DNA from: an uncultured Gammaproteobacteria bacterium
Lineage (GTDB): Bacteria; Patescibacteriota; Patescibacteriia; Patescibacteriales; UBA12465
Direction: 5' to 3'
Assembly (NCBI GenBank): GCA_964470695.1
Contig: CAYYDR010000001.1
Coordinates: 593,997 to 657,996, forward strand
DNA: 64,000 nt
Part shown: one piece after another, positions 8,823 to 60,480 of the stretch
How positions within the stretch are numbered: position 1 is the first letter of the stretch
Layout of the letters: every line of letters starts with the position of its first letter
Notes under the pieces: generated by a model
Database searches by the model: none
The model's input: the letters and a program-made list of their open reading frames with translations, nothing else
What the model was told of the DNA's origin: nothing
Position numbers and translations under genes: made by a program

Positions 8823-8874
8823 ATACATACAAAATGTTTTAGAACATTTTTGTTTTTTGGAGACAATTTAATAT

Positions 8875-43428: not shown

Positions 43429-43713
43429 ATATTTCTAGGTCTTTTAAATTCCTAGCGAGCCAACAAGCGAAAGCTTGCTTTCATTTGTGGCGAGCGACGG
43501 AATTACACGCCTGTAAGTGCTTTAAAACAAAAACTGGCTTTGAAACCAGCTTAAAAACTAAACAATAAAAAATAAAATTTGTTTTCTATCTTTTATTTTG
43601 TTTTGTCAGCTGATTTACCTCCTAATTTTAGCTAATATTCGCTTAAACACTTTCTATAATTTCAGAGTTATTTAGGCTTATTTTAGCTAAGTTAATCTCA
43701 TCTTTTTATACTA

Positions 43714-44049
43714 CTACATTTTTATTTCTACGTCAACCCCTGCCGGTAAGGCTAGGTTGGTCAAATCCTCAATCGTCTTGGCGGTTGGATCAATAATATC
43801 AATCATGCGCTTATGAATACGCATTTCATATTGATCACGGGCGTCCTTATGGACGAAAGTGGAACGGTTAACAGTATACTTCCTCTTCTCAGTCGGAAGC
43901 GGTATTGGCCCGAAAAACTGGGCGTCACTGCGCTCAATCGTTTCAATAATCGTTTTAGTGGACTGGTCAATAATCTTATGATCAAAAGCCTTGATCTTGA
44001 TTCTGATCCGTTGTTTAAAATCTTTTTCTTCTTTTTTGTTTTCGGACAT
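43714..44049 (-). CDS. rpsJ: 30S ribosomal protein S10 (uS10)
   Basis: 111 aa. [44 protein letters not shown]. Confidence 0.95.
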
Positions 44050-44073
44050 AATTTAACTTCTTTAAAATATACA

Positions 44074-44105
44074 CTACAAACCCGCCCTCAAAATAAGAGC
44101 GGGTC
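44074..44105 (-). terminator. Hairpin between tuf and rpsJ (possible attenuator/partial terminator)
   Basis: Minus strand ACCCGCtcttattttgaggGCGGGTttgt. The U-tract is short, so function is uncertain. Confidence 0.35.
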
Positions 44106-44112
44106 AAAGTGC

Positions 44113-45303: not shown

Positions 45304-45397
45304 GTTTTTGTTGTACGGCCCCCGCTTACCACGGGGTTTCTTTCCTGAAACCAGGAAACCAGCCGAACTAAATTAATTATTAATAAATAAATTATTT

Positions 45398-45784
45398 CTA
45401 AGATTGAACTTCCTGAGCCTTATCCTTCACTTGCGGAGGGATCTGCCAGGCCTTTTTTGGTTTATTTTCTTCTCCCAAATAAGCCGAATCATCTCGATTT
45501 TTCCACATCGAGATTTCGCGATTTATTTTATCAGTTAAATCTTCTTCTGTCAAATTTTCCATTTTCTCTGTTTTTACTGGTAATTCCGGCTTTATTAGCG
45601 TATTTTCTTGACTAGCTGAATCAATCTTTTCGGTTATTTTTTGCCCTTTAGAAATTAAGGACTCGTAGCTAGAAAAATCCATCAAAGCATAAGAATCATC
45701 CGGATTAGCAGCATCAAAAATAATGACTCTATCACCAGTCTTCTTCACTAAGGTTAAAATTTTCTTTAGCTGTTCTGGAAACAT
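45398..45784 (-). CDS. Hypothetical protein inserted between fusA and tuf
   Basis: 128 aa ORF on the operon strand, 20 nt after fusA. No motif recognised. Confidence 0.55.
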   Translation of the reverse strand: MFPEQLKKILTLVKKTGDRVIIFDAANPDDSYALMDFSSYESLISKGQKITEKIDSASQENTLIKPELPVKTEKMENLTEEDLTDKINREISMWKNRDDSAYLGEENKPKKAWQIPPQVKDKAQEVQS

Positions 45785-45804
45785 ATGTAAATTTCTGTAA
45801 AAGA

Positions 45805-47883
45805 TTACTTCCCTTGTTTTTCTTTAATCTGCTCTAAGATATTCTTCGGCACTTCCGCGTAATGAGAAAATTCCATAACGTAGTTAGCGCGACCTTGGCT
45901 CATAGAACGTAAACCAGTAGAGTAACCAAACATTTCCGCCAAAGGCACTTTAGCCTTAACGACCTTAACATTAGAACGATCGGACATTTCTTCAATCTGA
46001 CCACGCTTACTGCTTAAATCACCGATAATATTACCCATGTATTCTTCCGGGGTGGTAACTTCCACTTTCATGATTGGTTCAAGTAAAATAGCGCCGGCCT
46101 TCGCACAAGCATCACGGAAAGCGAAGATGGCCGCCATTTTAAAGGCAATTTCCGAAGAGTCAACTTCATGATAAGAACCATAGAAAACAGCGGTTCTAAC
46201 ATCAACCATCGGATAGCCAGCCACGCCGCCAGATAAAAATGCTTCCTTAACACCCTTTTCAATAGCCGGAATAAATTCTCTAGGAATAACGCCGCCCTTA
46301 ACTTCATCAACGAATTCAAAGCCTTTACCAGTTTCCAGCGGTTCAACACGTAAGGAACAATGGCCATATTGACCACGACCACCGGACTGCTTAGCATATT
46401 TATGTTCAGCTTCAGCAACTTTAGTAATAGTTTCACGATATGATACCTGAGGATTGCCAACGTTAGCTTCCACGCCGAATTCGCGCTTCATACGATCAAC
46501 AATGATTTCCAAGTGTAATTCACCCATACCAGAAATAAGAACCTGGTTGGTTTCGGTGTCAGTTTCAACGCGGAAAGTCGGATCTTCTTCCGCCAAGCGC
46601 TGTAAAGCCACGCCCATTTTTTCCTGGTCGGCTTTAGTCTTAGGTTCAACCGCAATTTTAATAACTGGTTCTGGGAAGACAATAGATTCTAATAAGACCT
46701 GGTTATTTTCGTCGCATAGAGTATTGCCAGTAGTAGTATTTTTCAAACCAATAATAGCCGCGATATCACCGGCATAAACCTCTTTCGCTTCTTCACGATG
46801 ATTAGCGTGCATGCGGACTAAACGACCGACTCTTTCCTTGCTATCCTTAGAAGAGTTAACAATATAAGAACCGGCGGTTAAAACCCCCTGATAAACACGA
46901 ACGAAACAAAGCTTACCAACGAAAGGATCAGTAGCAATTTTGAAAGCTAAACCGACAAAAGGTTTGCCATCATCAGCAGTGATAATAATTTTTTTCTCAG
47001 TATCGCGAACATCGGTTGCTTCAATTGCGGCGACATCAAGCGGGGATGGTAAATAATCATTAACGGCATCTAAAGCTAATTGAACGCCGATATTCTGTAA
47101 AGCCGTGCCGCAAAGAACCGGATAAATCGCGTTAGCAATAACGCCCTTGCGGATAGCAGCCTTTAATTCTTCTAAAGAAATTTCTTGGCCAGCCAAATAT
47201 TTTTCCATGGTCTTTTCATCGCACTCAACCGCCTTTTCAATTAATTCGTTATGGAATTCATCAACTTTCGCCTTCATATCTTCCGGAATAGCGACTTCTT
47301 CAATATTAACGCCAAAATGACCAGAGAATTGATAGGCTTTCTTGGTTAAAATATCAATAACGCCAGATAAATTGCTTTCGGCGCCGATTGGTAATTGAAT
47401 AGCAACCGCTTTCTGGTTAAGACGAGTTCTAATAGAATTAAGACTCATGTAAAAATCAGCGCCCATCTTATCCATTTTATTTACAAAGCAAAGACGAGGA
47501 ACCTGATATTTATCAGCCTGGCGCCAAACAGTCTCAGATTGCGGCTCAACGCCGGCCTGACCGTCAAAAACCGCAATAGCACCGTCTAAAACGCGCAAAG
47601 AGCGTTCTACTTCAACCGTGAAGTCAACGTGCCCAGGGGTGTCAATAATATTGATTTTATTGTGTTTCCAAAAACAAGTAGTAGCGGCGGAAGTAATAGT
47701 AATACCTCTTTCCTTTTCCTGTTCCATCCAATCCATTTCCGCGGCGCCCTCATGAACTTCGCCAATTTTATGTTTTTTACCAGTATAAAACAAAACGCGC
47801 TCGGTAAAAGTTGTTTTGCCGGCGTCGATATGGGCCATGATACCGATGTTTCTAATGTTTTCTAAGGCGTAGTCTCGGGGCAT
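45805..47883 (-). CDS. fusA: Elongation factor G
   Basis: 692 aa. [21 protein letters not shown]. Domains II-V are recognisable. Confidence 0.97.
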
Positions 47884-47924
47884 AATAAAAAATTATAATA
47901 AATTTATTTTAAAGTTATATTTAG

Positions 47925-48044
47925 GATAAATTCATTTTTGAGAGGAGTTCAAGGAAGGAATGAAGCGCGGAGTGAGCCGTATTAACATACGGCGAACGAG
48001 CACTGGAATTTCTGACGAAGAAATCCTCCAAAAATGGATTTATC
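47925..48044 (-). promoter_or_regulatory. About 120-nt structured element spanning the rpsG stop and the rpsG-fusA spacer
   Basis: GATAAATTCATTTTTGAGAGGA (47925-47946) pairs with TCCTCCAAAAATGGATTTATC (48024-48044): about 20 bp with one bulge and one G.U. Internal hairpins GCCGTA/TACGGC (47976-47993) and GGAATTTCT/AGAAATCC (48005-48026). Contains GGAGTGAG (47969-47976) and ACGGCGAA (47989-47996). Confidence 0.5.
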
Positions 48045-48507
48045 TTGAGAAGTGAGCGAAAGCTTTGTTCGCTTCAGCCATCTTATGAACCGCCTCTCTC
48101 TTCTTAACGGCCGTACCTTCGCCATTAGAAGCGTCTAAAATCTCAGTGGCCAATTTTTCCGCGGTAGAACGTCCTTTTCTATCATTAGCAGCACCAATAA
48201 TCCAGTTACAAGCTAAGAAATAGCGTCTTTCACCACGAACCTGGAAAGGGACCTGATAGTTCGCACCACCAACACGCTTGCCTCTTACTTCAACTAAAGG
48301 AGAAACTTTCTTAATCGCTTTATTGAAAATGTGGCGAGGATCTTGCTTAGTCTTCTCTTTTAATATTTCAAAAGAGCCGTAAACAATCTTTTCGGCCGCA
48401 CTTTTCTTACCACGTTCCATAACGTAGTTTATAAATTTGGCGATATTCTTATCGTTATATTTAGCGTCGCCTTCTATTGATCTTTTAGGAGCTGGTTTAC
48501 CTCTCAT
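48040..48507 (-). CDS. rpsG: 30S ribosomal protein S7 (uS7)
   Basis: 155 aa. KFINYVMERGKKS, VEVRGKRVGGANYQVP. Confidence 0.95.
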   Translation of the reverse strand: MRGKPAPKRSIEGDAKYNDKNIAKFINYVMERGKKSAAEKIVYGSFEILKEKTKQDPRHIFNKAIKKVSPLVEVRGKRVGGANYQVPFQVRGERRYFLACNWIIGAANDRKGRSTAEKLATEILDASNGEGTAVKKREAVHKMAEANKAFAHFSR

Positions 48508-48523
48508 AGTATTTAAGAATTAA

Positions 48524-48946
48524 TTATTTGGCTTTAGGCTTTTTAGCGCCATAACAACTGCGGCCCTGACGACGAGCCTCAACGCCAGAAGCGTCAAAAA
48601 CGCCCCGGACAACCTTATAGCGGACACCTGGCAAATCTTTAGTCTTACCACCTTTAACTAAAACGATAGAGTGTTCTTGTAAATTATGACCCATGCCAGG
48701 AATATAGGCAGTTACTTCCATGCCATTAGATAAGCGGACGCGAGCAATTTTACGTAAAGCGGAGTTCGGTTTTTTCGGAGTAGTTGTAGTTACCTTTAAA
48801 CAAACCCCCTGTTTAAAAGGAGCTCCTTTAGCGGTATCTTTTTTCTTCCGATGGAGAGAGTCAAGGCTAGTATGAAGAGCTAGCGCATTGCGTCTCTTAC
48901 CAAGAGATTTTCGTCCGTTCTTGATTAATTGGTTTATTGTTGGCAT
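48524..48946 (-). CDS. rpsL: 30S ribosomal protein S12 (uS12)
   Basis: 140 aa. [30 protein letters not shown]. Confidence 0.95.
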
Positions 48947-49017
48947 AAAAGCTAATGATAAGCAAAAATAATCCTGACTATTCAGGATATTTTTAGGCTA
49001 CGATTTAATACTAATTC

Positions 49018-49046
49018 AATTTAACAAAATATAAAATATAAGTCAA
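49018..49046 (-). promoter_or_regulatory. Sigma-70-type promoter candidate for the rpsL operon
   Basis: Minus strand TTGACT-17 nt-TGtTAAATT. A hairpin ATCCTGA/TCAGGAT (48971-48988) lies in the leader. Confidence 0.4.
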
Positions 49047-49069
49047 GATTAAACTTCTGATAAACCCAG

Positions 49070-49684
49070 TTAAACCCCTACTATAGTCCTAAACAGAAAA
49101 TTAACTAAAGGCATGATTAAATTACCGGCTAACATTACGAACAGAATAATTAAAATAAAGCCCATTCTTTCATTGCCGAGATAGCGTTCACGGGTCTGGG
49201 GAGACAAGAAGGTGGCTAATATTTTAGATCCATCAAGGGGCGGGATGGGCACTAAATTAAAGACCATCAAAACCAAATTAATATAGACTATTATACCCAA
49301 GAGGCCAACGAAAGTAATATTAAAAGCAGGCAAAAACCTTAAACATAAGCCAAAAAATAGCGCTACTACAAAATTAGCCAAAGGTCCGGCTAGAGCAACC
49401 TTAGCGTCACCATATTTTTTATCTCTTAAATTATAGGGATTATAAGGGACTGGCTTGGCCCAACCGAAAACAAAGGGCATATTAGACACTATCATCACTA
49501 AAGGCAAGAAAAAAGACCCAAACCATTCCAGATGAGCTAAGGGGTTAGCGGTCAATCGCCCCGCATCTTTAGCCGTTGAATCGCCTAAGCGGTAAGCCAT
49601 CCAGCCATGCATATATTCATGAATAACAGCCGAAAAAACCAAAACAATAATTTGAAAAACTTGAATCATAATTATATCCGCCAT
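49070..49684 (-). CDS. Site-2 protease family (M50) membrane metalloprotease
   Basis: 204 aa. HEYMHGWMA (HExxH), PIPPLDGSK, multiple TM helices. Confidence 0.8.
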   Translation of the reverse strand: MADIIMIQVFQIIVLVFSAVIHEYMHGWMAYRLGDSTAKDAGRLTANPLAHLEWFGSFFLPLVMIVSNMPFVFGWAKPVPYNPYNLRDKKYGDAKVALAGPLANFVVALFFGLCLRFLPAFNITFVGLLGIIVYINLVLMVFNLVPIPPLDGSKILATFLSPQTRERYLGNERMGFILIILFVMLAGNLIMPLVNFLFRTIVGV

Positions 49685-49721
49685 ATAGGCTTGTATTATT
49701 ATAATTATATTCTACCATAGC

Positions 49722-49750
49722 TTGATTAATTTTGAAAATGCTGTTAAGAT
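49722..49750 (+). promoter_or_regulatory. Sigma-70-type promoter candidate for rpmB
   Basis: TTGATT-17 nt-TGtTAAGAT. Confidence 0.4.
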
Positions 49751-49779
49751 AAGATTGTTTTTAAAATTAAACTATAAAT

Positions 49780-50070
49780 ATGGCGAAAAAATGTGATTTA
49801 TGCGGACGCAGCGCGACTAAGGGAGCCAGCCGTTCTCACTCTAAGATTAAAACCCTAAAAAGACAACATATTAACTTACAGAGCAAGATGATTGACGGTA
49901 TGAAAGTTAAGGTTTGTACTTCTTGTCTGCGCACTATGGATAAACCAAAAAGAGTTAAAGCTAAAAGAAAACCGGCTTTAAAGGCGGGCGAATTAAAAGC
50001 TTTAAAGGTTAAGAAGGCTGGCGCCAAAAGTGCCGCCAAAAAAGCGACTAAGAAAACTTCTAAAAAATAA
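49780..50070 (+). CDS. rpmB: 50S ribosomal protein L28 (bL28) with Lys/Ala-rich C-terminal extension
   Basis: 96 aa. MAKKCDLCGRSATKGASRSHS..KRQHINLQ, then KAKRKPALKAG...KKATKKTSKK. Confidence 0.85.
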   Translation: MAKKCDLCGRSATKGASRSHSKIKTLKRQHINLQSKMIDGMKVKVCTSCLRTMDKPKRVKAKRKPALKAGELKALKVKKAGAKSAAKKATKKTSKK

Positions 50071-50075
50071 ATTTC

Positions 50076-51476
50076 TCACCATTTAAACCGTCTCCTTAGT
50101 AGGAGACGGTTTTTTGTTATATAAATAATAATGACTAAAACCAAATAATATCCCCCGCCCCAATACCAATTAAAACCCTTAATATTTATAGCCGACCAAC
50201 TGGGCGCCGCTAATAGATTAGAAATAATAAAAATAAATTTTAATATTAAATAAGAAGGCAAAAACCATAAAAATCCTAAAATCGGGATTAAGGCTGATAA
50301 AAATACAGCGATGATAAGCGATGATAATAAGGGCGGAAAGGTCCAAAGCACTAAAATATTAGCCAGCGGGGCAATTAATGATAACTGCTTAAAGTTAATT
50401 AAGGCGATTGGCAATATTACAATCTGCGCAACTAAAGTTAAATTAAGAGTATCTAATATTGTTTTCCCAATATTTTTAGAGCGATGTTTCAATTTTAATT
50501 TATCTAAAAATTTAACCGTTAGGCTCTCACCTAAAGGATAAATATAAATTATCCCTAAAATAGCCAGGAATGACAATTGGAAACCAATATCATCGCGTAG
50601 TAGGCGGGGGTTAAAAAATAGCATGAGGGCCGCGCTAAAAATTAAAGCCTTGACCAGAGAGCTAGTTCTCTCATAATAAACAGCTAGAAAAGCCAGGGCG
50701 CCCATTAAAGACGAACGGACGGCAGAAGCGGAAAGACCAGTAATTAAGGGATATAAAAATAAAAATATAAAAATTAATTTCAGGGCGCGCCGGCGGCTAA
50801 AACCCACGCTCAATAGAAAATTAATAACCATGGCGCTTAAAATTGTAATATGCGAACCAGAAATTGCGATCATATGACTCAGGCCAACGCGAGAAAAAAT
50901 AGCCAAGTCCTCCCTTTCTACCGTCCGGCGATAACCCAATAATATAGCATCAGCCAAACCGGCGACTGGCTCAGGCAAATTAGAATCAATAATCAGTTTA
51001 AGGGTTTGTTTAAATTCTATTAGTTTTTTATAAGCCAATTGCGAATAATTTAGCGACCCAGTTTCTAAACTTATTTTTGGCCTATACATAACAGAATATA
51101 TATCATAACGAGCCAAGTAAGCTTCATAATCAAATTCGTCTATCTCAGGAGGTGCCTGTAACTGGCCACTAATTTTTAAATAATCGCCATAATCATAGGC
51201 TGGGTATAGATTAGTCGTAACTAAAACTTGTCCCTTAATTTGGCCTTTAACGCAAATAGTCAGGCGGCGGCTTTTAATATCAACATCCGCCTCTTCGCAA
51301 ACTTGGCCGATGAAGCTTAAATTTCGGCCGTTGTAATAAGCCAAGTCACCCCCTGAAATCTCCGGACGAAAAGCTTTAGACCGGAACCCTAAAATAAAAA
51401 TTCCGCCTATGAAAAACAGGTTAAATGCCAGAAATATTCTGGCTGGGGGCCAGGAAAGTGGAGAAAATAAAGACAT
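50076..51476 (-). CDS. comEC: ComEC/Rec2-family DNA internalisation channel protein (no beta-lactamase-like domain)
   Basis: 466 aa, polytopic. HMIAISGSHITIL competence-domain motif. TGA stop. Confidence 0.8.
   Translation of the reverse strand: MSLFSPLSWPPARIFLAFNLFFIGGIFILGFRSKAFRPEISGGDLAYYNGRNLSFIGQVCEEADVDIKSRRLTICVKGQIKGQVLVTTNLYPAYDYGDYLKISGQLQAPPEIDEFDYEAYLARYDIYSVMYRPKISLETGSLNYSQLAYKKLIEFKQTLKLIIDSNLPEPVAGLADAILLGYRRTVEREDLAIFSRVGLSHMIAISGSHITILSAMVINFLLSVGFSRRRALKLIFIFLFLYPLITGLSASAVRSSLMGALAFLAVYYERTSSLVKALIFSAALMLFFNPRLLRDDIGFQLSFLAILGIIYIYPLGESLTVKFLDKLKLKHRSKNIGKTILDTLNLTLVAQIVILPIALINFKQLSLIAPLANILVLWTFPPLLSSLIIAVFLSALIPILGFLWFLPSYLILKFIFIISNLLAAPSWSAINIKGFNWYWGGGYYLVLVIIIYITKNRLLLRRRFKW
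50086..50116 (+). terminator. Intrinsic terminator of rpmB, embedded in the 3' end of convergent comEC
   Basis: AACCGTCTCCttagtaGGAGACGGTTttttt. Confidence 0.75.
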
Positions 51477-51567
51477 AAAAAATACGGCTAATTCAATAGT
51501 CGTATTTTACAATATAATAGATTAAGAAAAGATAAAAAAATAAAATAGGAAATGCAGATTGAAATAT

Positions 51568-51596
51568 TTGACAAAAATAACATTTTGTCCTAATGT
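51568..51596 (+). promoter_or_regulatory. Sigma-70-type promoter candidate for ORF 51793
   Basis: TTGACA (51568-51573)-17 nt-TAATGT (51591-51596). Confidence 0.4.
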
Positions 51597-51792
51597 TATT
51601 TATTAACTAGTCCTTTAATAATTCTTGTCTCCACTAAAATACAGCTCGCAGTAAACGAGTCTTGGCTTTATTTTCGTGGAGATAAATAATCCACGGCAGT
51701 CTTCCCTTTGGCCACGCGGCCGGGACTAGTACCATTATGGTAGACTGAAAACCCCTGTGCCTCCTGACCGAGGCTGAAAAAAAGGAGTTTAT
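51597..51792 (+). ncRNA. Structured about 195-nt leader / candidate cis-regulatory RNA upstream of ORF 51793
   Basis: Hairpin TCTCCACTAAAATA/TATTTTCGTGGAGA (51628-51682, 13 of 14 pairs). Three-way junction: CAGTCT/AGACTG enclosing TCCC-GGCCacgcGGCC-GGGA and TACCattaTGGTA. Long-range ACTAGTCC (51606-51613) / GGACTAGT (51723-51730). GCCTCctgaccGAGGC just before AAGGAG. More GC-rich than its surroundings. Confidence 0.4.
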
Positions 51793-52539
51793 ATGATGTT
51801 ATTCAAAAAAAAGTCAAAACGATTATGGCTACTGGCAGTGGTGACATTCTTCACCCTCTACGTAATCATAATGCTGCTTGTAACAGCTGGGGAATACAAT
51901 GATTCCTTAGCTATAACAAGGAACGAATCACTATTGAAAATGGAGGTCGCATTATTTAGCATAGCCTCTTTAATCGGCCTGATAATCTCGCTCATTATTA
52001 TCTTCTCCAAGTCTGAAGAAGAAATAAATGAATATGAAACTAATTATGGCAAGGACATAATTAAAGAGCTGATAAAAACAATTAATAAAATTGATGGCGT
52101 GCTCGACGATCTGCATGTTTTTGGGGATTACTCCCCAAAAAGCATCAAATATTTCCGAGATAACTGTCTGGAATTTTTAAATCAACTTCGACGATGCCAC
52201 GGTTACGACATCAAAAGCGATGCCGTCAAAGTTATCTTAGCTGGAATCGGAAACACTCTAATAGTGGTATACAACATGCTTGACGGATATTGGGAAAAAC
52301 GCCGGGAAATCATAAAATCCAAGCCAACCGGCTGGGAAATGACGGTTGCCATAACAGATGAAAGTATTGATATGTTCATCGAAATGAAAGGATTCTTGCA
52401 TAAGTCATATGAAGATGTAGAAAAAATAGCTCTACGCCATAAAGTAAGTATAACAAGAAGCGATGACGCTACTGAATTGAAATATCTAGTGTATACTAAC
52501 CCCGATACTCTAAAACTTCTCAAAAAAAAGAAAAAATAA
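51793..52539 (+). CDS. Hypothetical membrane-anchored protein
   Basis: 248 aa with a strong AAGGAG Shine-Dalgarno. Two N-terminal TM helices, then a helical soluble domain. No family recognised. Confidence 0.6.
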   Translation: MMLFKKKSKRLWLLAVVTFFTLYVIIMLLVTAGEYNDSLAITRNESLLKMEVALFSIASLIGLIISLIIIFSKSEEEINEYETNYGKDIIKELIKTINKIDGVLDDLHVFGDYSPKSIKYFRDNCLEFLNQLRRCHGYDIKSDAVKVILAGIGNTLIVVYNMLDGYWEKRREIIKSKPTGWEMTVAITDESIDMFIEMKGFLHKSYEDVEKIALRHKVSITRSDDATELKYLVYTNPDTLKLLKKKKK

Positions 52540-52563
52540 AAGCGAACAAAGTCTCCCAAAAAC

Positions 52564-52594
52564 AAAAAACCCTCCAAAAATTGGAGGGTTTTTC
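52564..52594. terminator. Bidirectional intrinsic terminator
   Basis: aaaaaaCCCTCCAaaaatTGGAGGGttttt, between convergent genes. Confidence 0.8.
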
Positions 52595-52616
52595 ATTTTA
52601 AAAAATAATCTTAAAA

Positions 52617-53090
52617 CTACAAACCCCATTCTCCGTCACAATATTTGTCGCGCTTCAATATTATTTCTATTTCTTCTCTCACTAAAATAACATCATTTTC
52701 ATTCAATGGCTCAAAACCATCATAAAACCCGGTCTTACGATCAGGCAAATGCATACTTTCCGGCCAAGGCTGCTTAACCGCATTAGTAGCACGGCCAAAA
52801 ATATGAACATGTAGTAGAGGCTTGGTATTCGTTTTCCAAGCCCAATTGCCCATGTCTTGATAGTTTATTTTAATAACTGGAATGCCCTGCTTATTCATGG
52901 CTTTTTCTAAGGCTTCGCCCACAACCATAGTCAAGCGCATCAGTTCAATAGCCAGTTTAGGGGGCAACTGCGTCCGATCAGAAAATGATTTATCTTTTGA
53001 TAATATCCGGATATGGCCGCCGTCCGTCCGCGGTAAAAATGGCTGCTCACGCGACTCAACAATAAAATTTTTACTTTCGTAAATTAACAT
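52617..53090 (-). CDS. HIT-like (histidine triad superfamily) protein, degenerate triad
   Basis: 157 aa. LLHVHIFGR resembles the H-x-H-x-H-x-x motif but the third His is Phe. The N-terminal strand pattern also fits HIT. Unverified. Confidence 0.5.
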   Translation of the reverse strand: MLIYESKNFIVESREQPFLPRTDGGHIRILSKDKSFSDRTQLPPKLAIELMRLTMVVGEALEKAMNKQGIPVIKINYQDMGNWAWKTNTKPLLHVHIFGRATNAVKQPWPESMHLPDRKTGFYDGFEPLNENDVILVREEIEIILKRDKYCDGEWGL

Positions 53091-53094
53091 ATAA

Positions 53095-54198
53095 TTATCT
53101 CTTCAAAAACCTTAAATAAGCTTCCATGAATGGCTCTAAGTCGCCATCTAAAACGCTATCAACATTAGAAGTCTCATAACTAGTCCGGTGGTCTTTAACT
53201 AAACGATTGCCATAAAGAAAATAGGAACGAATTTGGCGGCCCCATTCAGCCTTAGTCAACTCTCCTTTCAATTTTCTTTCTTCCGCTTCTTTCTCGGCCA
53301 AAGATAATTGATATAATTTAGTTTTCAATATTTTAAAAGCATTTTCCTTATTCTGATGCTGGGAGCGTTCGCTCTGGCAAGCCACGGTTATTCCGGTCGG
53401 AATATGGACAACGCGAACCGCCGAGTCAGTCGTGTTAACGCTCTGGCCGCCCGGACCGCTAGAACGATAAACATCTATTCTAATATCTTCGTCTTTAATA
53501 ACTATCGCTGAGTCATCTTTAATCTCCGGAATAACTTCTACTAAAGCGAACGAAGTCTGGCGCAAACCATCGGCATTAAAAGGCGAGTTACGCAGTAAAC
53601 GATGAACGCCATTCTCGCTCTTTAAATAACCATAGGCCCAGGGACCGCTAACGCGCAAAACAGCGCTCTTTAGGCCCGCTTCATTGCCATAGTTACGATC
53701 TAAACTTTCTACTCGCCAGCCCTCTCTCTCGCCAAAACGGAAATACATTCGCTCCAGCATTTGAGCCCAATCCTGGGCATCAACCCCGCCTGTCCCAGAA
53801 TGAATAGATAAAATGGCATTATCATGGTCATAAGATCCGGAGAATAATGATAAAAATTCCAAATGAGAAAATTTCTTACTCAGCTCTTCATATTTTTTTT
53901 CCAAATCACTAGTCAAATCGTCCCCCTGCTCCTTCTGAGCTAAGGCGGTAATTTCCTCAACCTCCCTTATCTCTTTCTCCATCGCTTCCCATTCTCCAGT
54001 CTCGGAGGCTAATTCTTCCACCTTCTGGCCGATTTTAACCGCCGCGGCTCTATCCGACCAAAAATCCGGCTCAGCCATGCGCAAACGAAGCTCTTTCTCT
54101 TCTACAATTTTCCGCTCAATATTTAAAAGAGCTTTAGTCTTTAGAAAGCGCTCGCGTAAATCTTCTAAATTTTTTAATAATGTTTCCATATTGCTCAT
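53095..54198 (-). CDS. prfB: Peptide chain release factor 2, encoded without programmed frameshift
   Basis: 367 aa single ORF. SPF (NSPFNA) and GGQ (SGPGGQSVN) motifs. Confidence 0.93.
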   Translation of the reverse strand: MSNMETLLKNLEDLRERFLKTKALLNIERKIVEEKELRLRMAEPDFWSDRAAAVKIGQKVEELASETGEWEAMEKEIREVEEITALAQKEQGDDLTSDLEKKYEELSKKFSHLEFLSLFSGSYDHDNAILSIHSGTGGVDAQDWAQMLERMYFRFGEREGWRVESLDRNYGNEAGLKSAVLRVSGPWAYGYLKSENGVHRLLRNSPFNADGLRQTSFALVEVIPEIKDDSAIVIKDEDIRIDVYRSSGPGGQSVNTTDSAVRVVHIPTGITVACQSERSQHQNKENAFKILKTKLYQLSLAEKEAEERKLKGELTKAEWGRQIRSYFLYGNRLVKDHRTSYETSNVDSVLDGDLEPFMEAYLRFLKR

Positions 54199-54203
54199 TA
54201 TAA

Positions 54204-54236
54204 CAAAAAAACGCCCTGTTGGGCAGGGCGTTTTTG
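54204..54236 (-). terminator. Strong intrinsic terminator after rpsI, ending 5 nt before the prfB start codon
   Basis: Minus strand ACGCCCTGcccaaCAGGGCGTttttttt, then gttataATG. Confidence 0.8.
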
Positions 54237-54256
54237 ATATAGAAATGATATAACGA

Positions 54257-54766
54257 TTAACGTTTGCTCCATTGCGGGGCTTTGCGGGCTTTGCGTAAAC
54301 CCGGCTTCTTTCTTTCCACCTGGCGCGGGTCGCGAGTCAAAAAGTCATTTACCTTCAAAGCTTCCTTAGTAGCTGGATCAAGGGTTAAAATAGCGCGGGC
54401 AATCCCTAAGCGGACAGCACCAACCTGACCTTGTTTACCGCCACCCTGAGCTAAAATAGAGAAATTATAGTCACGGGCATGGCCGGTCGCCTTTAAAGGC
54501 TGGGCGATAATGTTCGCTCCTTCACCAGCAAAATACTGGCTAGCGCGCATGCCATTAACCATGATAATGCCTTTGCCGTCTTCATATAAACGGACCTTCG
54601 CCACCGCATTTTTACGGCGACCGACGGCCTTAATATATTTACCAACGAATTCAGCGGTTTCATTTTTGGCCCAATCCTTTTCTTCTTCCGCCGGTAACTC
54701 AGTTACTAATACTTCGTGCGGATCAATTTCTCTGGCCACCTGAGGTTTTGCTTTTCTTTCTACCAT
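54257..54766 (-). CDS. rpsI: 30S ribosomal protein S9 (uS9) with N-terminal extension
   Basis: 169 aa. GRRKNAVAKVRL, GGGKQGQVGAVRLGIARAL, TRDPRQVERKKPGLRKARK. Confidence 0.95.
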   Translation of the reverse strand: MVERKAKPQVAREIDPHEVLVTELPAEEEKDWAKNETAEFVGKYIKAVGRRKNAVAKVRLYEDGKGIIMVNGMRASQYFAGEGANIIAQPLKATGHARDYNFSILAQGGGKQGQVGAVRLGIARAILTLDPATKEALKVNDFLTRDPRQVERKKPGLRKARKAPQWSKR

Positions 54767-54767
54767 A

Positions 54768-55124
54768 TTATTTAATAATTAATCTTTTGAGCATACCGGT
54801 TCGCAATCTAGTATCCGGCAACATTTCTCTAACCGCACGGACCAAAACTTCACCAGGATTATCAGCATAAACTTTACCCATGGTTTTGGTCTTTAAATGA
54901 CCAAGATAACCAGTAAAATGATGGTACTGTTTCTGGGATAATTTCTTGCCAGTAAACTTAAGCTTAGTAATATTGCTTACTTCAACAATATCGCCTAAAT
55001 CTAAGTGAGGCTGAAATTCCGGTTTAGTCTTACCTCTTAAGAGGTTAGCTACTTTAGTCGCTAAACGACCCAAGGATTCACCGGTCGCATCTAACTTCTG
55101 TAATTTTCTTTCAATATTTTTCAT
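54768..55124 (-). CDS. rplM: 50S ribosomal protein L13 (uL13), short form
   Basis: 118 aa. DATGESLGRLATKVANLLRGK, YHHFTGYLGHLK. Confidence 0.93.
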   Translation of the reverse strand: MKNIERKLQKLDATGESLGRLATKVANLLRGKTKPEFQPHLDLGDIVEVSNITKLKFTGKKLSQKQYHHFTGYLGHLKTKTMGKVYADNPGEVLVRAVREMLPDTRLRTGMLKRLIIK

Positions 55125-55128
55125 ATGG

Positions 55129-55479
55129 TTATACTAATTCAATCTGCACCATTTCCGCGCCGTCGCCAGCCCGAGTGCCTAATTTAGTCGTACGAGTATA
55201 GCCGCCCGGACGAGTCTTATAGCGAACGCCAAGCACCTCAATCGCCTTCTTAACCGAATTCTTCTGCAGTAAAACTTTCAAAAGACCACGACGAGCTGTT
55301 AAATCACCAGCTTTAGCCGCGGTAATTGATCTTTCTACTAAAGGACGGACCGCTGCGGCCTTAGCCCTAGTTGTCTTAACCTTTTCGTACAAAAGAATAC
55401 TAGAAGCCAAGTTACGCAACATGAGTTCGCGTGGGCCTTTCTTCCGATCCAGGATTTTATTTTTATTTCTGTGACGCAT
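55129..55479 (-). CDS. rplQ: 50S ribosomal protein L17 (bL17)
   Basis: 116 aa. MRHRNKNKILDRK, GGYTRTTKLGTRAGDGAEMVQIEL. Confidence 0.95.
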   Translation of the reverse strand: MRHRNKNKILDRKKGPRELMLRNLASSILLYEKVKTTRAKAAAVRPLVERSITAAKAGDLTARRGLLKVLLQKNSVKKAIEVLGVRYKTRPGGYTRTTKLGTRAGDGAEMVQIELV

Positions 55480-55502
55480 ATCGTTCTATTACAAATTACC
55501 AA

Positions 55503-56333
55503 TTATTTTTTAGCTTTTTTAGCTTTTTTTTCTTTCTTCTCTGGTTTTTCAGCCTTCTCTTCCTCATCATCTTCGCTGACCGCTTCTTCCACGACTTCAG
55601 CCTCAACAACCTCTTCGCTAGCAGCCGGAGCTTCTTCGGCGCCGGAGCTAATAGCCAAGAAAGATGAATATTGATCAACTAAAATTTTAACCGCTTCATT
55701 AAAAGCTTCTTCAGCGCTAATAGTGCCATCAGTCTTAACCGTTAAAATCAATTTATCCCAGTTAGTCATTTTACCAACGCGGGTACTTTCCACATTGATG
55801 CTAACGACGATAACTGGAGAAAAAATAGAATCTATTTCAATATAACCAATTTCTCTATTATCTTTTTTAGTTCCTTCAGCCATTTTATAGCCACGACCTT
55901 CTTTCACTAATATTTCTGCCTCTAGACTGCCTGATTCATCGGTAATATGAGCGATAACTAACTCCGGGTTCTTAATAGAAACCTGAGAATTTTTAACTAT
56001 ATCACCGGCGGTTACTACTTTTTTACCCTTTACTTTCAGATCAAGGCGAACCTCTTCTTCAGTAAAAGCTTTAAGGCGTAACTGCTTAAGATTTAAAAGT
56101 ATTTCTAGAACATCCTCTTTAACATGCGGCAAAGCCATAAACTCATGGCTAGCTCCCTTGATCTTTACGCCAATAACCGCGGCGCCAGGCAAGGAAGATA
56201 AAAGAACGCGACGAAGGGCGTTACCAAGAGTCATGCCATAACCTGGAAATAAAGGCTCAACTGTAATGATCCCCTCGTGAGGATTGCTACCTTTTTTGAA
56301 TTCAATTTTTTTTGGTAGAGCAATGTTTTGCAT
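55503..56333 (-). CDS. rpoA: DNA-directed RNA polymerase alpha subunit, N-terminal domain only plus charged low-complexity tail
   Basis: 276 aa. GYGMTLGNALRRVLLSSLPGAAV and the dimerisation/assembly domain up to about residue 228. The rest is AEEAPAASEEVVEAEVVEE...KKEKKAKKAKK. Confidence 0.93.
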   Translation of the reverse strand: MQNIALPKKIEFKKGSNPHEGIITVEPLFPGYGMTLGNALRRVLLSSLPGAAVIGVKIKGASHEFMALPHVKEDVLEILLNLKQLRLKAFTEEEVRLDLKVKGKKVVTAGDIVKNSQVSIKNPELVIAHITDESGSLEAEILVKEGRGYKMAEGTKKDNREIGYIEIDSIFSPVIVVSINVESTRVGKMTNWDKLILTVKTDGTISAEEAFNEAVKILVDQYSSFLAISSGAEEAPAASEEVVEAEVVEEAVSEDDEEEKAEKPEKKEKKAKKAKK

Positions 56334-56340
56334 AAAGATT

Positions 56341-56382
56341 ATTCGCGCCTAGACGGAGTGAGATGTCCGCCGACGGCGAATT
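56341..56382 (-). promoter_or_regulatory. GC-rich hairpin element in the rpsD-rpoA spacer sharing a bipartite motif with 47969-47996
   Basis: ATTCGCgcctagaCGGAgtgagatgTCCGCCgacGGCGAAT. Contains GGAGTGAG (56355-56362) and ACGGCGAA (56373-56380) 10 nt apart. Outer ATTCGC/GCGAAT pairing. Confidence 0.5.
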
Positions 56383-56385
56383 ATT

Positions 56386-57015
56386 TTATTTTGAGTAATA
56401 CTCAATAATTACTTGAACGTTTAAATTTAATGGCAAATCAGTGTCTTTTGGTTCATGTAGAACCTTGGCGCTTAAATCAGAATTATCAAAATTCAACCAG
56501 CTTGGTCTATCAGCCTTCTTAAGTTTTTCACCTAAGTTTTTAAAATAGCGGTTAGACTGGCTAGATTTCTTAATTTTTAAAACTTGACCGACTTTAACAT
56601 TGAAAGAAGCAATATCAGCCTTACGACCATTAACAGTAAAGTGGCCATGATTAACTAATTGACGAGCTGCGGCGCGGGAAGTCGCCCAACCGAGACGATA
56701 AATAACGTTATCTAAACGCATTTCTAAAGCTCTGAGGAAATTCTTACCGGCATCACCGCTCTTCTTGGAAGCTTTTTCAAAAGTCAAACGGAATTGTTTT
56801 TCCATTAAGCCATAGAATTTCTTAGCTTTCTGTTTTTCCGCTAACTGCAAACCGTAGTCGCTAGTTCTCTTATGTCCTTTAGGGCCATGAAAACCAGGAG
56901 CGTAGTTACGCTTAATTATCGCGCATTTCGGAGTAAAGCAGCGTTCCCCTTTTAAAAACAGCTTTTCGCCCAAACGGCGGCATTGTTTGCATTTGCTATC
57001 AATATTTCTTCCCAT
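56386..57015 (-). CDS. rpsD: 30S ribosomal protein S4 (uS4)
   Basis: 209 aa. CKQCRRLGEKLFLKGERC, YGLQLAEKQK, S4 domain RLDNVIYRLG. Confidence 0.95.
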   Translation of the reverse strand: MGRNIDSKCKQCRRLGEKLFLKGERCFTPKCAIIKRNYAPGFHGPKGHKRTSDYGLQLAEKQKAKKFYGLMEKQFRLTFEKASKKSGDAGKNFLRALEMRLDNVIYRLGWATSRAAARQLVNHGHFTVNGRKADIASFNVKVGQVLKIKKSSQSNRYFKNLGEKLKKADRPSWLNFDNSDLSAKVLHEPKDTDLPLNLNVQVIIEYYSK

Positions 57016-57045
57016 ATCTTTTTAGACTTTATGAATATTTTATAA

Positions 57046-57618
57046 TTATACCCTTCTCGGTTTCTTCGGACGGCAGCCATTATGAGGAACCGGAGTAACA
57101 TCTTTAATTGAAGTGACATTTAAACCATTAGCATTTAAAGCGCGGATAGCCGCTTCACGGCCAGTCCCGACGCCGGAAACAAAAACGCTAACCTCTTCTA
57201 AACCATATTCTTCACGCGCTTTCTGGGTAGCAATTTTAGTAATAATCTGAGCGGCATAAGGAGTCGCTTTTTTAGCGCCCTTAAAACCAGCCAAACCAGC
57301 GCTAGCCCAAGAAATGACGTCGCCACCATTATCAGTCAAGGTTAACATCGTGTTATTATAGGTCGCCTGAATATAAGCGCGGCCGATTTTAACGATTTTA
57401 GCAGTCTTCTTTTTCTTTTTCTTAATCAGCTTTTTCTTACTGCGAGCCGCTTTATTCTTTTCTAATTTCTGCTTAATTTCTTCCGGTAATTCCTCAACGC
57501 TGGAATCAAAAGAAAAATCAGAGCCTTCCTTTTCTTCTTTCGGCTCTTTAGCTTCTTGACTGGCGCCTAGGGCGGCCGGAGTCACTTCTTTTTTAGTTTC
57601 TTTTACTTCTTCGGACAT
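57046..57618 (-). CDS. rpsK: 30S ribosomal protein S11 (uS11) with about 70-aa charged N-terminal extension
   Basis: 190 aa. Core [55 protein letters not shown]. Confidence 0.95.
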
Positions 57619-57665
57619 AATATTCTTAAAATTCTTAATTCGTAATTTTTAATTCGTAATTATGA

Positions 57666-58061
57666 TTAAGTCTTCTGTAAACCAGCCTTGCTCTTACCGC
57701 TACCCATAGTTACGCGCTTATTGCCACGAACAGTGCGGCTATTAGTCTTAGTTCTCTGACCACGGACCGGTAAATGCTTACCATGGCGCAAACCGCGGTA
57801 ACAACCGATTTCTCGTAAACGCTTAATATTACTGGCTACTTCACGACGCAAATCACCCTCAACCGTATATTTCTTCTCAACGATTTCGCGCAAAGTATTA
57901 ACTTCGCTTTCTTTTAAATCCTTAGTTCTGGTATCTTTATTAACTTTAGCTTCCGCCAAAATCTTATTAGATCTGGTCTGGCCGACGCCGTGGATATAAG
58001 TTAAAGCGATTTCTATTCTTTTGTCATTAGGGATGTTAACTCCCGCAATTCTTACTGCCAT
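57666..58061 (-). CDS. rpsM: 30S ribosomal protein S13 (uS13)
   Basis: 131 aa. [47 protein letters not shown]. Confidence 0.95.
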
Positions 58062-58076
58062 AATATTATAAAAAAA

Positions 58077-58190
58077 TTACCCCTGTCTCTGCTTATGCTT
58101 AGGGTTTTTACAAATAACGTGGACCCGACCTTCACGTCTGACCACCTTACAATCTTTACAAATTTTCTTAGCACTGGCTCTTACTTTCAT
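58077..58190 (-). CDS. rpmJ: 50S ribosomal protein L36 (bL36); below the ORF-track size cutoff
   Basis: Hand translation of the minus strand: [40 protein letters not shown] at 58190, TAA at 58077-58079. Confidence 0.95.
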
Positions 58191-58245
58191 ATTTAAAATG
58201 CATTAATCAAATTACGAAATAAATTTCTAAATCAGTCTGAAAAAT

Positions 58246-58503
58246 CTACATGCGGTAAGTGATGCGCCCTTTAGTTAAATCGTAGGGGCTGATTTGGAGC
58301 TTAACCTTGTCTCCTGGCAGAAGACGGATTTTATTCATCCGCATTTTACCGGATAAGTGAGCTAAAATCTCGTGGCCATTTTCCAAGGCTACTTTAAAAC
58401 TAGCCGCTGGCATCAGCTCTAACACCTCGCCCTGCATCTCAATAAAGTCCTTAGCATTAAGTATGGCAGAAGCCTCGCTAGTATTTTCTTTTTCTTTTGA
58501 CAT
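58246..58503 (-). CDS. infA: Translation initiation factor IF-1
   Basis: Track ORF extends to 58545. ATG 58503 gives [67 protein letters not shown]..., the S1-like IF-1 core with a short N-terminal extension. Confidence 0.92.
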
Positions 58504-58596
58504 TAACACAAAAAAATTTGATAAAGACTCTTGCCTCCTTATCAAAATTCTTTAAAAATTAGTTAAGTTATTTTGTATAATAATCTTAATAAAATT

Positions 58597-58625
58597 ATTA
58601 TAGAGATAAGATTAGAAGTTGTCAA
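58597..58625 (-). promoter_or_regulatory. Consensus sigma-70 promoter for the infA-rpmJ-rpsM...rpsI operon
   Basis: Minus strand TTGACA-17 nt-TATAAT, exact consensus hexamers, about 95 nt upstream of infA. Confidence 0.6.
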
Positions 58626-58630
58626 TAGGC

Positions 58631-58662
58631 AAAAATAGCGATAAAGGCCTAATTTAGGCCTT
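58631..58662 (-). terminator. Hairpin overlapping the alaS stop codon (possible terminator)
   Basis: AAGGCCTaatttAGGCCTT. The downstream U-tract on the minus strand is interrupted. Confidence 0.35.
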
Positions 58663-60480
58663 ATTCTCTAAAACCGCCTTAATACGCCTCACTCCAGCGC
58701 TAGATGCCTCTTCTTTTTGTATCTTAAAATGTCCCAGAATACCGGTATTATTAACATGAGGACCCCCACAAATCTCCTGAGAGAAGGCTAATTTGGTGTC
58801 AGGCTGGTTGTCTGCTTGAAGCGGGGCAACCGTATAGACTTTAACTTGTTCGCCATATTTAGAGTCAAATACCCCCATCGCGCCCCTATCCTTTGCTTGC
58901 GCCAGAGATAATTCTTCGCAGACTACTGGATAATCAGCGGCAATAGCGCCGTTAACTAAATCCTCCACTTCTTTTATCTGCTCTGGGGTCATTTTTTCGG
59001 GATGAGAAAAATCCAAACGTAAACGTTCCGCAGTAATATTGCTACCCTTTTGAACAACATGCTCTCCCAAAACTTTTCTAAGAGCCGCGAGCATCAGATG
59101 GGCGGTAGTATGTAATTTGGTAGTTTCTTCACCCGCATCAGCCAGACCGCCTTTAAATTTCCCAGCGGCAGCAGTACGGGATAAATCCTGATGCTTCTTG
59201 AGTTCGGCTTCAAAGCCCGACCTATCAACTCCTACGCCCTTTTCCTTGGCGAGCTCCTCAGTTATTTCCAAGGGAAAGCCATAGCTCTGATATAACTTAA
59301 AAGCTTCTTCGCCGCTAATAACGCCGTCACCGGATAGCTTATTGAACTCTAATAATCCTTTTTCTAAAGTAAAATTAAATTTTTCTTCTTCCTTATCTAA
59401 ATTATCTAGCGTAAACTGCTTATTTTTTTCTAACTCATTATAAATATTTTTATAATCATTAATAACCACGGCCGCGATTTCTTTAACCCAAAGTTGACTC
59501 TTAATATCTAACTGCTTGCCATAACGGATGGCGCGTCTAATTAGACGACGAACAACATAGCCCTGATCAGTATTAGACGGCGTAATACCTTTATTATCAC
59601 TGATGATAAAAGTAGCGGCCTTTAAATGATCGGCAATAATGCGCATGGCTCGGGTAATCTCGGAAGATTCATTATACTTATGCCCGCTCAAAGACTCTAG
59701 CTTATTAATTAAATTAATAAACAACTCAGTCTGATAATTATCAGCTAAACCATTCATAACCGCCAAGACTCTTTCTAGGCCCAAACCAGTATCAACATTC
59801 TTCTGAGCTAAGGGCACAAACTTACCAGCCGCGTCCTTATTATATTGCATAAAGACGTTATTCCAGATTTCAACCCATAAATCATTATCATCATTAAAGC
59901 TGCCCGGGGTCTTATCCGGCGCGCCAACCCAATAAAAAATTTCTGTATCCGGTCCGCAGGGCCCAGTAATACCAGCCGGCCCCCACCAATTATTTTTCTT
60001 AGGTAATTTCGCGATGCGTTCTAGAGGCAAACCGTTATCAGTAAAGATTTTAGACCAAATATTATAAGCCTCACTGTCAAAAGGGGCGTCATCGTCGCCG
60101 GCAAAAACCGAGACGGCTAAACGGCTCTTATCCAAACCGAGCCACTGAGTGCTAGTTAAAAACTCCCAACTATAATTAATTGACTCTTCTTTAAAGTAAT
60201 CACCAAGTGACCAGTTACCCATCATTTCAAAAAAAGTATGGTGAGTCGTATCACCGACTTCGTCAATATCGCCAGTCCGAATACATTTCTGAGCATTAGT
60301 TAAACGATTACCGGCCGGGTGTTTTTCGCCCAGTAAATATGGGACCAAAGGATGCATGCCGGCGGTCGTAAATAAGACCGAAGGATCATTTTCTGGAATT
60401 AAAGAAGAACTAGAAATCACGGCGTGATTTTTAGCCTTAAAAAAATCTAAATATTTTTGGCGCAGTTCAACTGAAGTCAT
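58654..60480 (-). CDS. alaS: Alanine--tRNA ligase, short form ending after the editing domain
   Basis: 608 aa. FFKAKNHAVISSSSLIP, WGPAGITGPCGPDTEIF, editing-site HTTAHLM and CGGPHV. No C-Ala domain. Confidence 0.92.
   Translation of the reverse strand: MTSVELRQKYLDFFKAKNHAVISSSSLIPENDPSVLFTTAGMHPLVPYLLGEKHPAGNRLTNAQKCIRTGDIDEVGDTTHHTFFEMMGNWSLGDYFKEESINYSWEFLTSTQWLGLDKSRLAVSVFAGDDDAPFDSEAYNIWSKIFTDNGLPLERIAKLPKKNNWWGPAGITGPCGPDTEIFYWVGAPDKTPGSFNDDNDLWVEIWNNVFMQYNKDAAGKFVPLAQKNVDTGLGLERVLAVMNGLADNYQTELFINLINKLESLSGHKYNESSEITRAMRIIADHLKAATFIISDNKGITPSNTDQGYVVRRLIRRAIRYGKQLDIKSQLWVKEIAAVVINDYKNIYNELEKNKQFTLDNLDKEEEKFNFTLEKGLLEFNKLSGDGVISGEEAFKLYQSYGFPLEITEELAKEKGVGVDRSGFEAELKKHQDLSRTAAAGKFKGGLADAGEETTKLHTTAHLMLAALRKVLGEHVVQKGSNITAERLRLDFSHPEKMTPEQIKEVEDLVNGAIAADYPVVCEELSLAQAKDRGAMGVFDSKYGEQVKVYTVAPLQADNQPDTKLAFSQEICGGPHVNNTGILGHFKIQKEEASSAGVRRIKAVLENKA

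Follow-up and report, generated by a model that had tools for sequence, protein, structure and literature searches.

Do two spacers within ribosomal protein operons carry one and the same regulatory motif? The question is raised by a 64,000-nucleotide stretch of contig CAYYDR010000001.1 (the window), in which a first-pass annotation noted two octamers in a GC-rich element between rpsD and rpoA (site A), found them again in the same order in the spacer between rpsG and fusA (site B), and proposed a single bipartite element common to both spacers. Reading of the sequence confirmed the octamers themselves: on the + strand, GGAGTGAG occupies positions 47969-47976 and 56355-56362, and ACGGCGAA positions 47989-47996 and 56373-56380, the pair reading GGAGTGAG-N12-ACGGCGAA at site B (47969-47996) and GGAGTGAG-N10-ACGGCGAA at site A (56355-56380). 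The flanking genes and their order were also described correctly, as verified by profile matches. The single element, however, did not survive comparison with relatives. On balance, the two octamers probably lie in two different cis-encoded hairpins, of which that at site B belongs to a conserved, apparently undescribed family of ~120-nt hairpins placed after stop codons, and that at site A is independent of it.

The pair of octamers is rare. The pattern GGAGTGAG-N(6-20)-ACGGCGAA, searched on both strands, has exactly two copies in the 64 kb, a single octamer being expected about 0.3-1 times per strand; 100 dinucleotide-preserving shuffles of the window gave no match to the gapped pattern. Further near-copies in the window (up to three mismatches, gaps of 4-30 nt) are about as numerous as in shuffles. 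When the site A core was shuffled and compared with site B, two colinear shared 8-mers arose in 68 of 1,000,000 mononucleotide shuffles and in 118 of 200,000 dinucleotide shuffles, the latter being a conservative null. Each of the two spacers is identical in four independent assemblies of the same species, and the octamers are therefore not an assembly artefact.

At site A, the rpsD-rpoA spacer is 52 nt long and folds into a GC-rich hairpin of 41 nt (56341-56381, - strand; minimum free energy -17.9 kcal/mol, z -4.0), with the outer stem AUUCGC/GCGAAU, the inner stem GGCGGA/UCCGUC and the loop CAUCUCAC. On the transcribed strand the octamer at 56355-56362, which there reads CUCACUCC, is made of loop residues and the start of the 3' stem arm, and the octamer at 56373-56380, reading UUCGCCGU, of the 5' arm of the outer stem and the first residues of the inner one. 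In this fold CUCAC forms the loop, UCCG belongs to an arm of a stem, and there is no GUA/UAC stem. The CGCC/GGCG mini-hairpin described here at first is possible, but both the minimum free energy fold and the orthologous spacers favour GGCGGA/UCCGUC within AUUCGC/GCGAAU. Likewise, GCGC, which was said to precede both motifs, abuts the motif at site B (47965-47968) but stands 6 nt away from it at site A (56345-56348).

The orthologous spacers in four related loci (L169, L172, L089 and L001) each form a hairpin as well (z from -2 to -4.6). They share the base AAUAAUUCG...CG(A/G)AUAAU with site A and differ in inner stems and loops. In L169, the nearest relative at this site (96% S4 identity), the spacer reads AATAATTCGGCGCGGGCGGTATCACCGTCTAGCGCGGATAATATT, with an inner part ...UUCGGCGCGGGCGGUAUCACCGUCUAGCGCGG... 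and without both octamers, which are absent also from L172, L089, L001, L170 and L175. The remaining close relatives have unrelated hairpins or spacers of 5-21 nt, many of them only 5-9 nt. Site A is a separate, fast-evolving hairpin: since its orthologues share the base and differ in the inner stems, UUCG and (U)CCG among the shared 8+9 nucleotides are ancestral to the site, and CCGU and the CUCAC loop are recent changes specific to the window species. The suggested link to a regulatory ribosomal protein (S4, S7) found no support at site A; for site B such a link is a possibility.

The element at site B is a rod-like hairpin of 120 nt (47925-48044, - strand). The transcribed strand forms a long hairpin with interruptions (z-score -6.2, - strand), made up of eight short helices, P1-P8. 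The stop codon of rpsG, UAA at 48040-48042 (model positions 3-5), is a part of the first stem, P1 (UAAA). At the other end, the apical hairpin P8 (47976-47993, - strand) has the form GCCGUAU-GUUA-AUACGGC with an unpaired UC on each side, and is the conserved core of the family; ACGGC as the 3' arm of a hairpin, as first described for this site, is thus real and belongs to a helix of 7 bp (GCCGUAU/AUACGGC). The octamers are the two flanks of this apical module (UC-GCCGUAU-loop-AUACGGC-UC). On the transcribed strand, CUCACUCC (47969-47976) takes in the final C of P8, then the unpaired UC, AC paired in P7 and a UCC without partners; UUCGCCGU (47989-47996) has a U of P7, continues through the unpaired UC and runs into P8, where it covers the first 5 nt of the 5' arm. 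A search of dispersed repeats, direct and inverted, yielded solely the arms of the site B hairpin (I20) and no repeat family.

S4 and S7 homologues that are 75-96% identical carry, in their source records, the names Patescibacteria group or Candidatus Falkowbacteria, which identifies the organism as a candidate-phyla-radiation (CPR) bacterium. Relative loci, denoted here by L-numbers, were fetched and scanned over a total of ~2.2 Mb with covariance models. The first model (R1) was built from four sequences, the window copy and those of L095, L003 and L104; the second (R2) was built without the window copy; and the third (R3), an apical-core model of ten non-window members, was run on the whole window with all filters off. 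Site B matched R1 with 130.6 bits (E 8e-31) and, as a held-out sequence, R2 with 108.5 bits (E 3e-22), and its core (47962-48006) was recovered by R3, again held out, with 36.7 bits (E 1.3e-7). Site A was reported at E<=10 neither by R1 and R2 nor by the unfiltered R3 search of the window. Scanning with covariance models, therefore, brought out a family for site B (E 1e-7 to 1e-31 at that site) but never site A.

The homologues in the same spacer are those of L095 (S7 88% identical) and L003 (77%), and a near-identical copy lies between rpsM and rpsK in L104. In addition, R1 found L024 and L013, both after rpsG in CPR bacteria of the Paceibacteria type, and four human-gut contigs of Candidatus Scatomorpha, a member of Clostridia (L122, L128, L129 and L132), in which the element is located between rpsN and rpsH. 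It also found a deletion derivative in L105, the closest relative with a str locus (97% S7 identity), which has kept the outer arms and lost the apical 60 nt. R2 added L297 (Zambryskibacteria) and the L308-317 group (Paceibacterota), directly after rpsG. The element thus follows the uS7 gene in seven CPR lineages including the window, and the uS13 gene in one CPR contig. Members found by R1 and R2 stand solely after rpsG (window, L095, L003, L024, L013, L297, L308-317), rpsM (L104) or rpsN (the four Ca. Scatomorpha contigs); no other match of these models was obtained in the ~2.2 Mb.

The fold of the family is supported by covariation. The four-sequence alignment has 39 consensus pairs, 24 of them with compensatory changes. 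With eight sequences in the model alignment, 89% of the cells pair, and changes on both sides are seen in 32 of the 39 pairs, a covariation reached in none of 500 shuffles; slid controls were 37-49% paired. The apical module can be written as UC, (G/A)CNGUA(U/C), a loop of 4-5 nt, (A/G)UACNGC and U(C/U), and across 12 members GUA/UAC is invariant and UC nearly so. The 5' internal loop yCGyC is a further family feature, and the conserved part of the second octamer is limited to C-U-C-x-x-U-x-C.

The position of the element is equally regular. Its 5' arm overlaps the upstream stop codon or lies 0-4 nt from it in 10 of the 12 members, and its orientation relative to the upstream gene is fixed in all 12 (same strand); in Ca. 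Scatomorpha, the 5' arm is made by the last codons of rpsN. The gene on the 3' side varies: some members have fusA there, L024 and L297 a convergent gene, and L308 an unknown open reading frame (ORF). The element is tied, therefore, to the 3' end of the ribosomal protein gene. Rfam 15 gave no match to other family members, and none at the two window sites either at the gathering threshold (whole window) or at E<=10 (43000-59000 searched); the first impression that no described ribosomal protein leader matches was therefore right. A scan of a viral collection with the core pattern returned 97 stretches, with no homologues among those inspected, which were one coding-region match repeated over a 29-kb phage family and unrelated singletons.

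With the family defined, the proposal of a shared motif can be weighed. It holds that one trans-factor, such as a ribosomal protein of the S4/S7 type, an RNase or a small RNA, recognises UUCGCCGU-hairpin-CUCACUCCG as a bipartite element and acts through it at two boundaries between ribosomal and non-ribosomal genes. The exact 8-mer pair, in the same order and with similar spacing, is what the shuffles of the window (0/100) and of the spacer (68/1e6) hardly produce; both sites do lie at the same kind of gene boundary; and CUCAC(U) is unpaired in both predicted folds. Yet the structural contexts of the octamers differ between the sites, the family models miss site A, and the family itself keeps only C-U-C-x-x-U-x-C of the second octamer. 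Moreover, the octamers are not conserved at site A even at 96% S4 identity, and at site B they are gone together with the apical module in the relative of 97% S7 identity (L105) and are absent also from L096, L001, L002, L098, L170 and L275-296. Because orthologous spacers of close relatives lack the octamers, the shared motif is refuted as a conserved element, and one recognition element for one factor is very unlikely. The bipartite match is confined to the window species, and is most likely a coincidence between two GC-rich hairpins. More generally, an exact pair of shared 8-mers within GC-rich hairpins of an AT-rich genome can mimic a motif and fail in relatives.

What, then, would two such hairpins do? 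Both are stable on the strand of the operon transcript, right after a stop codon. No terminator or promoter consensus was found at site A or around site B (47700-48700), and the window copies have no U-tract; a role as intrinsic terminator or promoter at both sites was rejected for lack of a consensus match. The site B family resembles intrinsic terminators in that a GC-containing hairpin ends the cistron, and the L308 copy is followed by UUUUUU; it differs in that the window copies have no U-tract, and ordinary short terminators occur elsewhere in these CPR genomes (L024, L300). Between the site B element and the start codon of fusA lies an AT-rich linker (47884-47924, - strand) without a Shine-Dalgarno sequence; a TATAAT-like box is present, and a consensus scan of the linker gave no promoter or terminator. 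Neither fusA nor rpoA has an obvious promoter of its own. We propose that both hairpins act in cis on the polycistronic mRNA. From their place directly past a stop codon, they would set the highly expressed cistron of the ribosomal protein apart from the downstream gene of EF-G or RNA polymerase alpha. They could work as barriers to 3'-to-5' decay, or as processing sites, and in this way would set the ratio of ribosomal protein to EF-G or RNA polymerase alpha. Since a terminating ribosome would have to melt P1-P2 at the base of the site B hairpin, termination of the upstream cistron may be modulated as well.

Several observations weigh against this reading of two separate hairpins acting on the sense transcript. 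To begin with, the rate of coincidence is low, at ~7e-5 per spacer pair. We estimate it at ~0.003-0.1 when many comparable spacer pairs are allowed for, and a real species-specific link between the two sites, for example through a common trans-factor or templated copying, may therefore exist, although coincidence is the simplest reading. Next, the family is missing from most close relatives, and is thus dispensable: in most Falkowbacteria-like relatives (L001, L002, L004, L096, L098, L170, L275-296) the rpsG-fusA spacer is 22-38 nt long and without the element. Further, C and U make up 75% of the internal-loop residues of the family when these are read in the mRNA sense (C 164, U 143, G 52, A 52 in 12 members), which is unusual for a structured RNA of the sense strand, so that the functional strand could be the other one. 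Indeed, the antisense strand folds better by 10-23 kcal/mol in all eight members compared, because UC/UC loops become tandem GA/GA. Finally, L024 has a canonical terminator between rpsG and the element, and its next gene is convergent; this element may be transcribed mostly antisense.

These last points bear on the idea that the functional molecule is an antisense RNA from the + strand or a DNA-level hairpin, in which purine-rich tandem GA/GA loops have been selected. Loops that are 75% C+U in the sense are 75% G+A in the antisense, and purine-rich loops are the usual composition of structured RNAs; the antisense fold is the more stable one in 8/8 members; and with convergent next genes in L024 and L297, antisense read-through is plausible. 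Nevertheless, we consider a functional antisense molecule highly improbable. Anchoring at the stop codon with a fixed orientation most simply fits a sense role, no promoter consensus was found on the + strand, and the apical loop varies in length with no conserved ORF. The wobble pairs are no help, since 12 G.U (sense) compared with 9 A.C are uninformative on the strand. Small ORFs on the + strand (GGAAGGA-ATG at 47960 and GGAGTGAG-ATG at 56363) were rejected, the frame of the motif being different at the two sites; variation of the apical loop by 1 nt among copies of the family, which shifts the frame, also speaks against them.

If the element acts on the sense strand, the invariant GUA/UAC helix and the UC loops suggest, from sequence conservation, that a specific factor is bound, and because the element goes with rpsG, uS7 is the obvious candidate ligand. 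In its strongest form, this would make the family a uS7 autoregulatory operator that mimics the 16S rRNA site and is located at the 3' end of rpsG rather than upstream; by binding the stop-codon hairpin, S7 would govern termination, the decay of the cistron that encodes it or the output of the downstream genes. The element stands directly after the rpsG stop codon in the seven CPR lineages whatever gene follows, and these span Falkowbacteria-like bacteria, Zambryskibacteria, Taylorbacteria and other Paceibacteria; the invariant GUA/UAC with the flanking UC may well reflect sequence-specific recognition. The apical AAUACG presumably resembles positions 1374-1379 of the E. coli 16S rRNA (GAAUACG), beside the S7 cross-link site C1378. 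The S7 operator of E. coli is also said to resemble 16S sites, including 5'-UGAAU (PMC3616713).

However, in L104 the element stands after rpsM, and in Ca. Scatomorpha after rpsN; these copies and the dispensability of the element speak against an S7 operator of a simple kind. Most close relatives are without it and show no compensating element, a terminator precedes it in L024, and the known operators work at ribosome-binding sites and not at stop codons. The S7 operator of E. coli, which is restricted to Gammaproteobacteria, lies in the rpsL-rpsG intercistronic region, where it prevents the coupled translation of S7 (PMC3616713). It is comparable to site B in its operon (rpsL-rpsG-fusA-tuf), in the candidate ligand and in that the E. 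coli hairpin is said to be 16S-like (PMC3616713), but the window element follows rpsG, and the rpsL-rpsG spacer of the window is just 16 nt long. A uS7 operator at the 3' end of its gene is accordingly unlikely.

A hairpin with covarying stems and the conserved loop UAUAGCUG(G/A)U is present in the rpsL-rpsG spacer of some relatives (L170:17035-17099, L174:7983-8070, L287-L296 at about 2925-3000, and L003:9931-10000), and is a possible analogue of the S7 operator; the window spacer is without it. Its distribution is not complementary to that of the site B family, which counts against the operator. Replacement of this hairpin (loop UAUAGCUGRU; L170, L174, L287-296, L003) by the site B element was rejected, as many relatives have neither and L003 has both.

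The patchy distribution of the family raises another possibility, namely that it is a selfish or neutral palindromic insertion of the MITE, REP or ERIC type, with site A as a small fragment of it or an unrelated hairpin. Filled and empty sites do vary among close relatives (spacers of 116-360 nt versus 22-38 nt), a near-identical copy has come to lie in a different spacer in L104, and the family is present in two phyla. Derivatives with internal deletions exist (L105 and unit 2 of L122), and partial or tandem duplicates are common (L003, L104, L122, L128, L308). REP/BIME and ERIC (IRU) sequences, imperfect palindromes with a length of 35-127 nt, are found in transcribed spacers, often directly past a stop codon; their presence varies among relatives, they form tandem clusters, and they can stabilise the upstream mRNA. 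REPs within ~15 nt of a stop codon reportedly reduce translation of the upstream gene. Such elements, on the other hand, are dispersed in tens to hundreds of copies that face either way, the REPs with a cognate RAYT transposase, whereas the site B family has one copy per locus in a fixed orientation and with a fixed gene partner. There is a single copy in the 64-kb window and none elsewhere in the ~2.2 Mb of loci; the family keeps strictly to a place behind stop codons of genes for small-subunit ribosomal proteins, always in one orientation (12/12). By eye, no target-site duplication or additional terminal inverted repeat is apparent on comparison with the empty sites of L096, L001 and L002, and no homologues were seen among the inspected matches in the viral collection. 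The hairpin is also maintained by compensatory changes. An insertion of this type thus seems doubtful to us.

Two of the duplicated loci have a more complex structure. The rpsN-rpsH spacer of Ca. Scatomorpha, ~370-390 nt long (L122:2949-3355, L128:3058-3436), contains two to three tandem, partly degenerate hairpin units, and each unit opens with a repeat of the 3' end of rpsN (CTTGGTAA). Immediately 5' of rpsH there is a further conserved region, GC-rich and distinct from these units. In L308 (2112-2145), a partial 3' half of a copy of the L297 type (TATACACGACCTTCGCGAAAAATCCTCCGAGCC) is found ~20 nt past the full element, which indicates repeated duplication or insertion at that site.

Taken further, the data might describe a new class of ribosomal protein-linked RNA in two phyla, a 120-nt rod that starts from the stop codons of genes for proteins of the 30S head (uS7, uS13, uS14). 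Recognition might come from uS7 or from some other conserved factor, which would make the rod a 3' "retro-operator"; alternatively, the rod might be an antisense RNA whose loops contain tandem G.A. In the window species, the hairpin that follows rpsD would then have arrived at both recognition octamers by convergence. We rate this as quite unlikely as a whole. If the retro-operator were real, it would be the first ribosomal protein operator working at a stop codon.

To our knowledge, the regulation of ribosomal proteins in CPR bacteria is essentially uncharted. Known E. coli ribosomal protein operators are narrowly distributed (PMC3616713), and elements downstream of ribosomal protein genes are rare. 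The sole one described is L17DE, the L17 downstream element (Weinberg et al. 2017), a structured RNA on the 3' side of rplQ in Firmicutes, proposed to bind L17 or another protein of the upstream operon; the survey that covers it lists neither Patescibacteria nor an rpsG element (PMC7247131). The site B family is similar to it in its location 3' of a ribosomal protein gene and not in a leader, but differs in that it follows rpsG, rpsM or rpsN in Patescibacteria and one genus of Clostridia, forms a single 39-bp rod that includes the stop codon, and has no Rfam match, L17DE included. Its interest lies in the covariation, in the anchoring at the rpsG stop codon over deep CPR lineages and in the recurrence after rpsN in a gut Clostridia genus. 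It is a candidate for balancing the output of ribosomal proteins versus elongation factor in reduced CPR genomes or, alternatively, a candidate new type of protein-binding RNA.

Both operons of the window lie on the - strand. The str operon comprises rpsL (48524-48946), rpsG (uS7, 48040-48507; TIGR01029, E 5e-58), the stop codon of which is inside the site B element, fusA (EF-G, 45805-47883; TIGR00484, 1144 bits), located downstream of it, an ORF of 128 aa, and tuf (44113-45303), and then rpsJ follows. The 128-aa ORF between fusA and tuf (45398-45784, - strand) has no NCBIfam match; an ORF of the same size, without a Pfam match, occurs between these genes in L170 and L283-286. The alpha operon comprises rpsM (57666-58061), rpsK (57046-57618), rpsD (uS4, 56386-57015; NF003717, E 7e-75) upstream of site A, rpoA (55503-56333; TIGR02027, E 9e-75) downstream of it, and rplQ (55129-55479). 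The rpoA product appears to consist of the N-terminal domain only: its 276 aa match profile positions 1-250 of 320, with no apparent C-terminal domain, and the products of relatives are 271-281 aa long. The product of rpsK (uS11; 57046-57618, - strand) has 190 aa, and the S11 profile starts at residue 69, which gives an N-terminal extension of ~68 aa.

The S4 operator of E. coli (Alpha_RBS, RF00140) is a pseudoknot at the start of rpsM, leaves rpoA outside S4 control and is limited to Gammaproteobacteria (PMC3616713). It belongs to the same operon as site A (rpsM-rpsK-rpsD-rpoA-rplQ), but site A has the form of a plain hairpin and lies between rpsD and rpoA. At the start of the window rpsM, in the position of the E. 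coli operator, there is a sub-threshold match to Alpha_RBS (58026-58113, - strand; 18.4 bits, E 1.7).

In the rpsJ-rplC spacer (43429-43713, - strand; 285 nt), the first-pass annotation had noted a weaker relative of the motif. The sequence CGACGGAATTA is indeed present at 43496-43506, but was detected by none of R1, R2 and R3. Two hairpins are present in this spacer: GCUGGUUUCAAAGCCAGUUUUUGUUUU, which resembles a terminator, and, directly ahead of rplC, one built on AAUUCC/GGAAUU. Within the 3' end of an alaS-like ORF (58654-60480), GGAGTGAGGCGTATTAA (58679-58695, - strand) agrees with the site B apex (+ reading) at 15 of 17 nt, in the opposite orientation and probably by chance. Elsewhere in the window, a tRNA gene (8876-9179, + strand), with exon halves cccgggtagcgcagcggtagcgcagttggct... 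and ...ccaattggtcgtcggttcgaatccgaccccgggagcca, is interrupted by a group I intron (Rfam Intron_gpI, 8826-9131, 89 bits); ARAGORN reports no tRNA in the window. Finally, three tandem repeats of 54 nt each (family D1), with a spacing of 39 nt and 80-100% identity, are located at 28669-28800 (+ strand).

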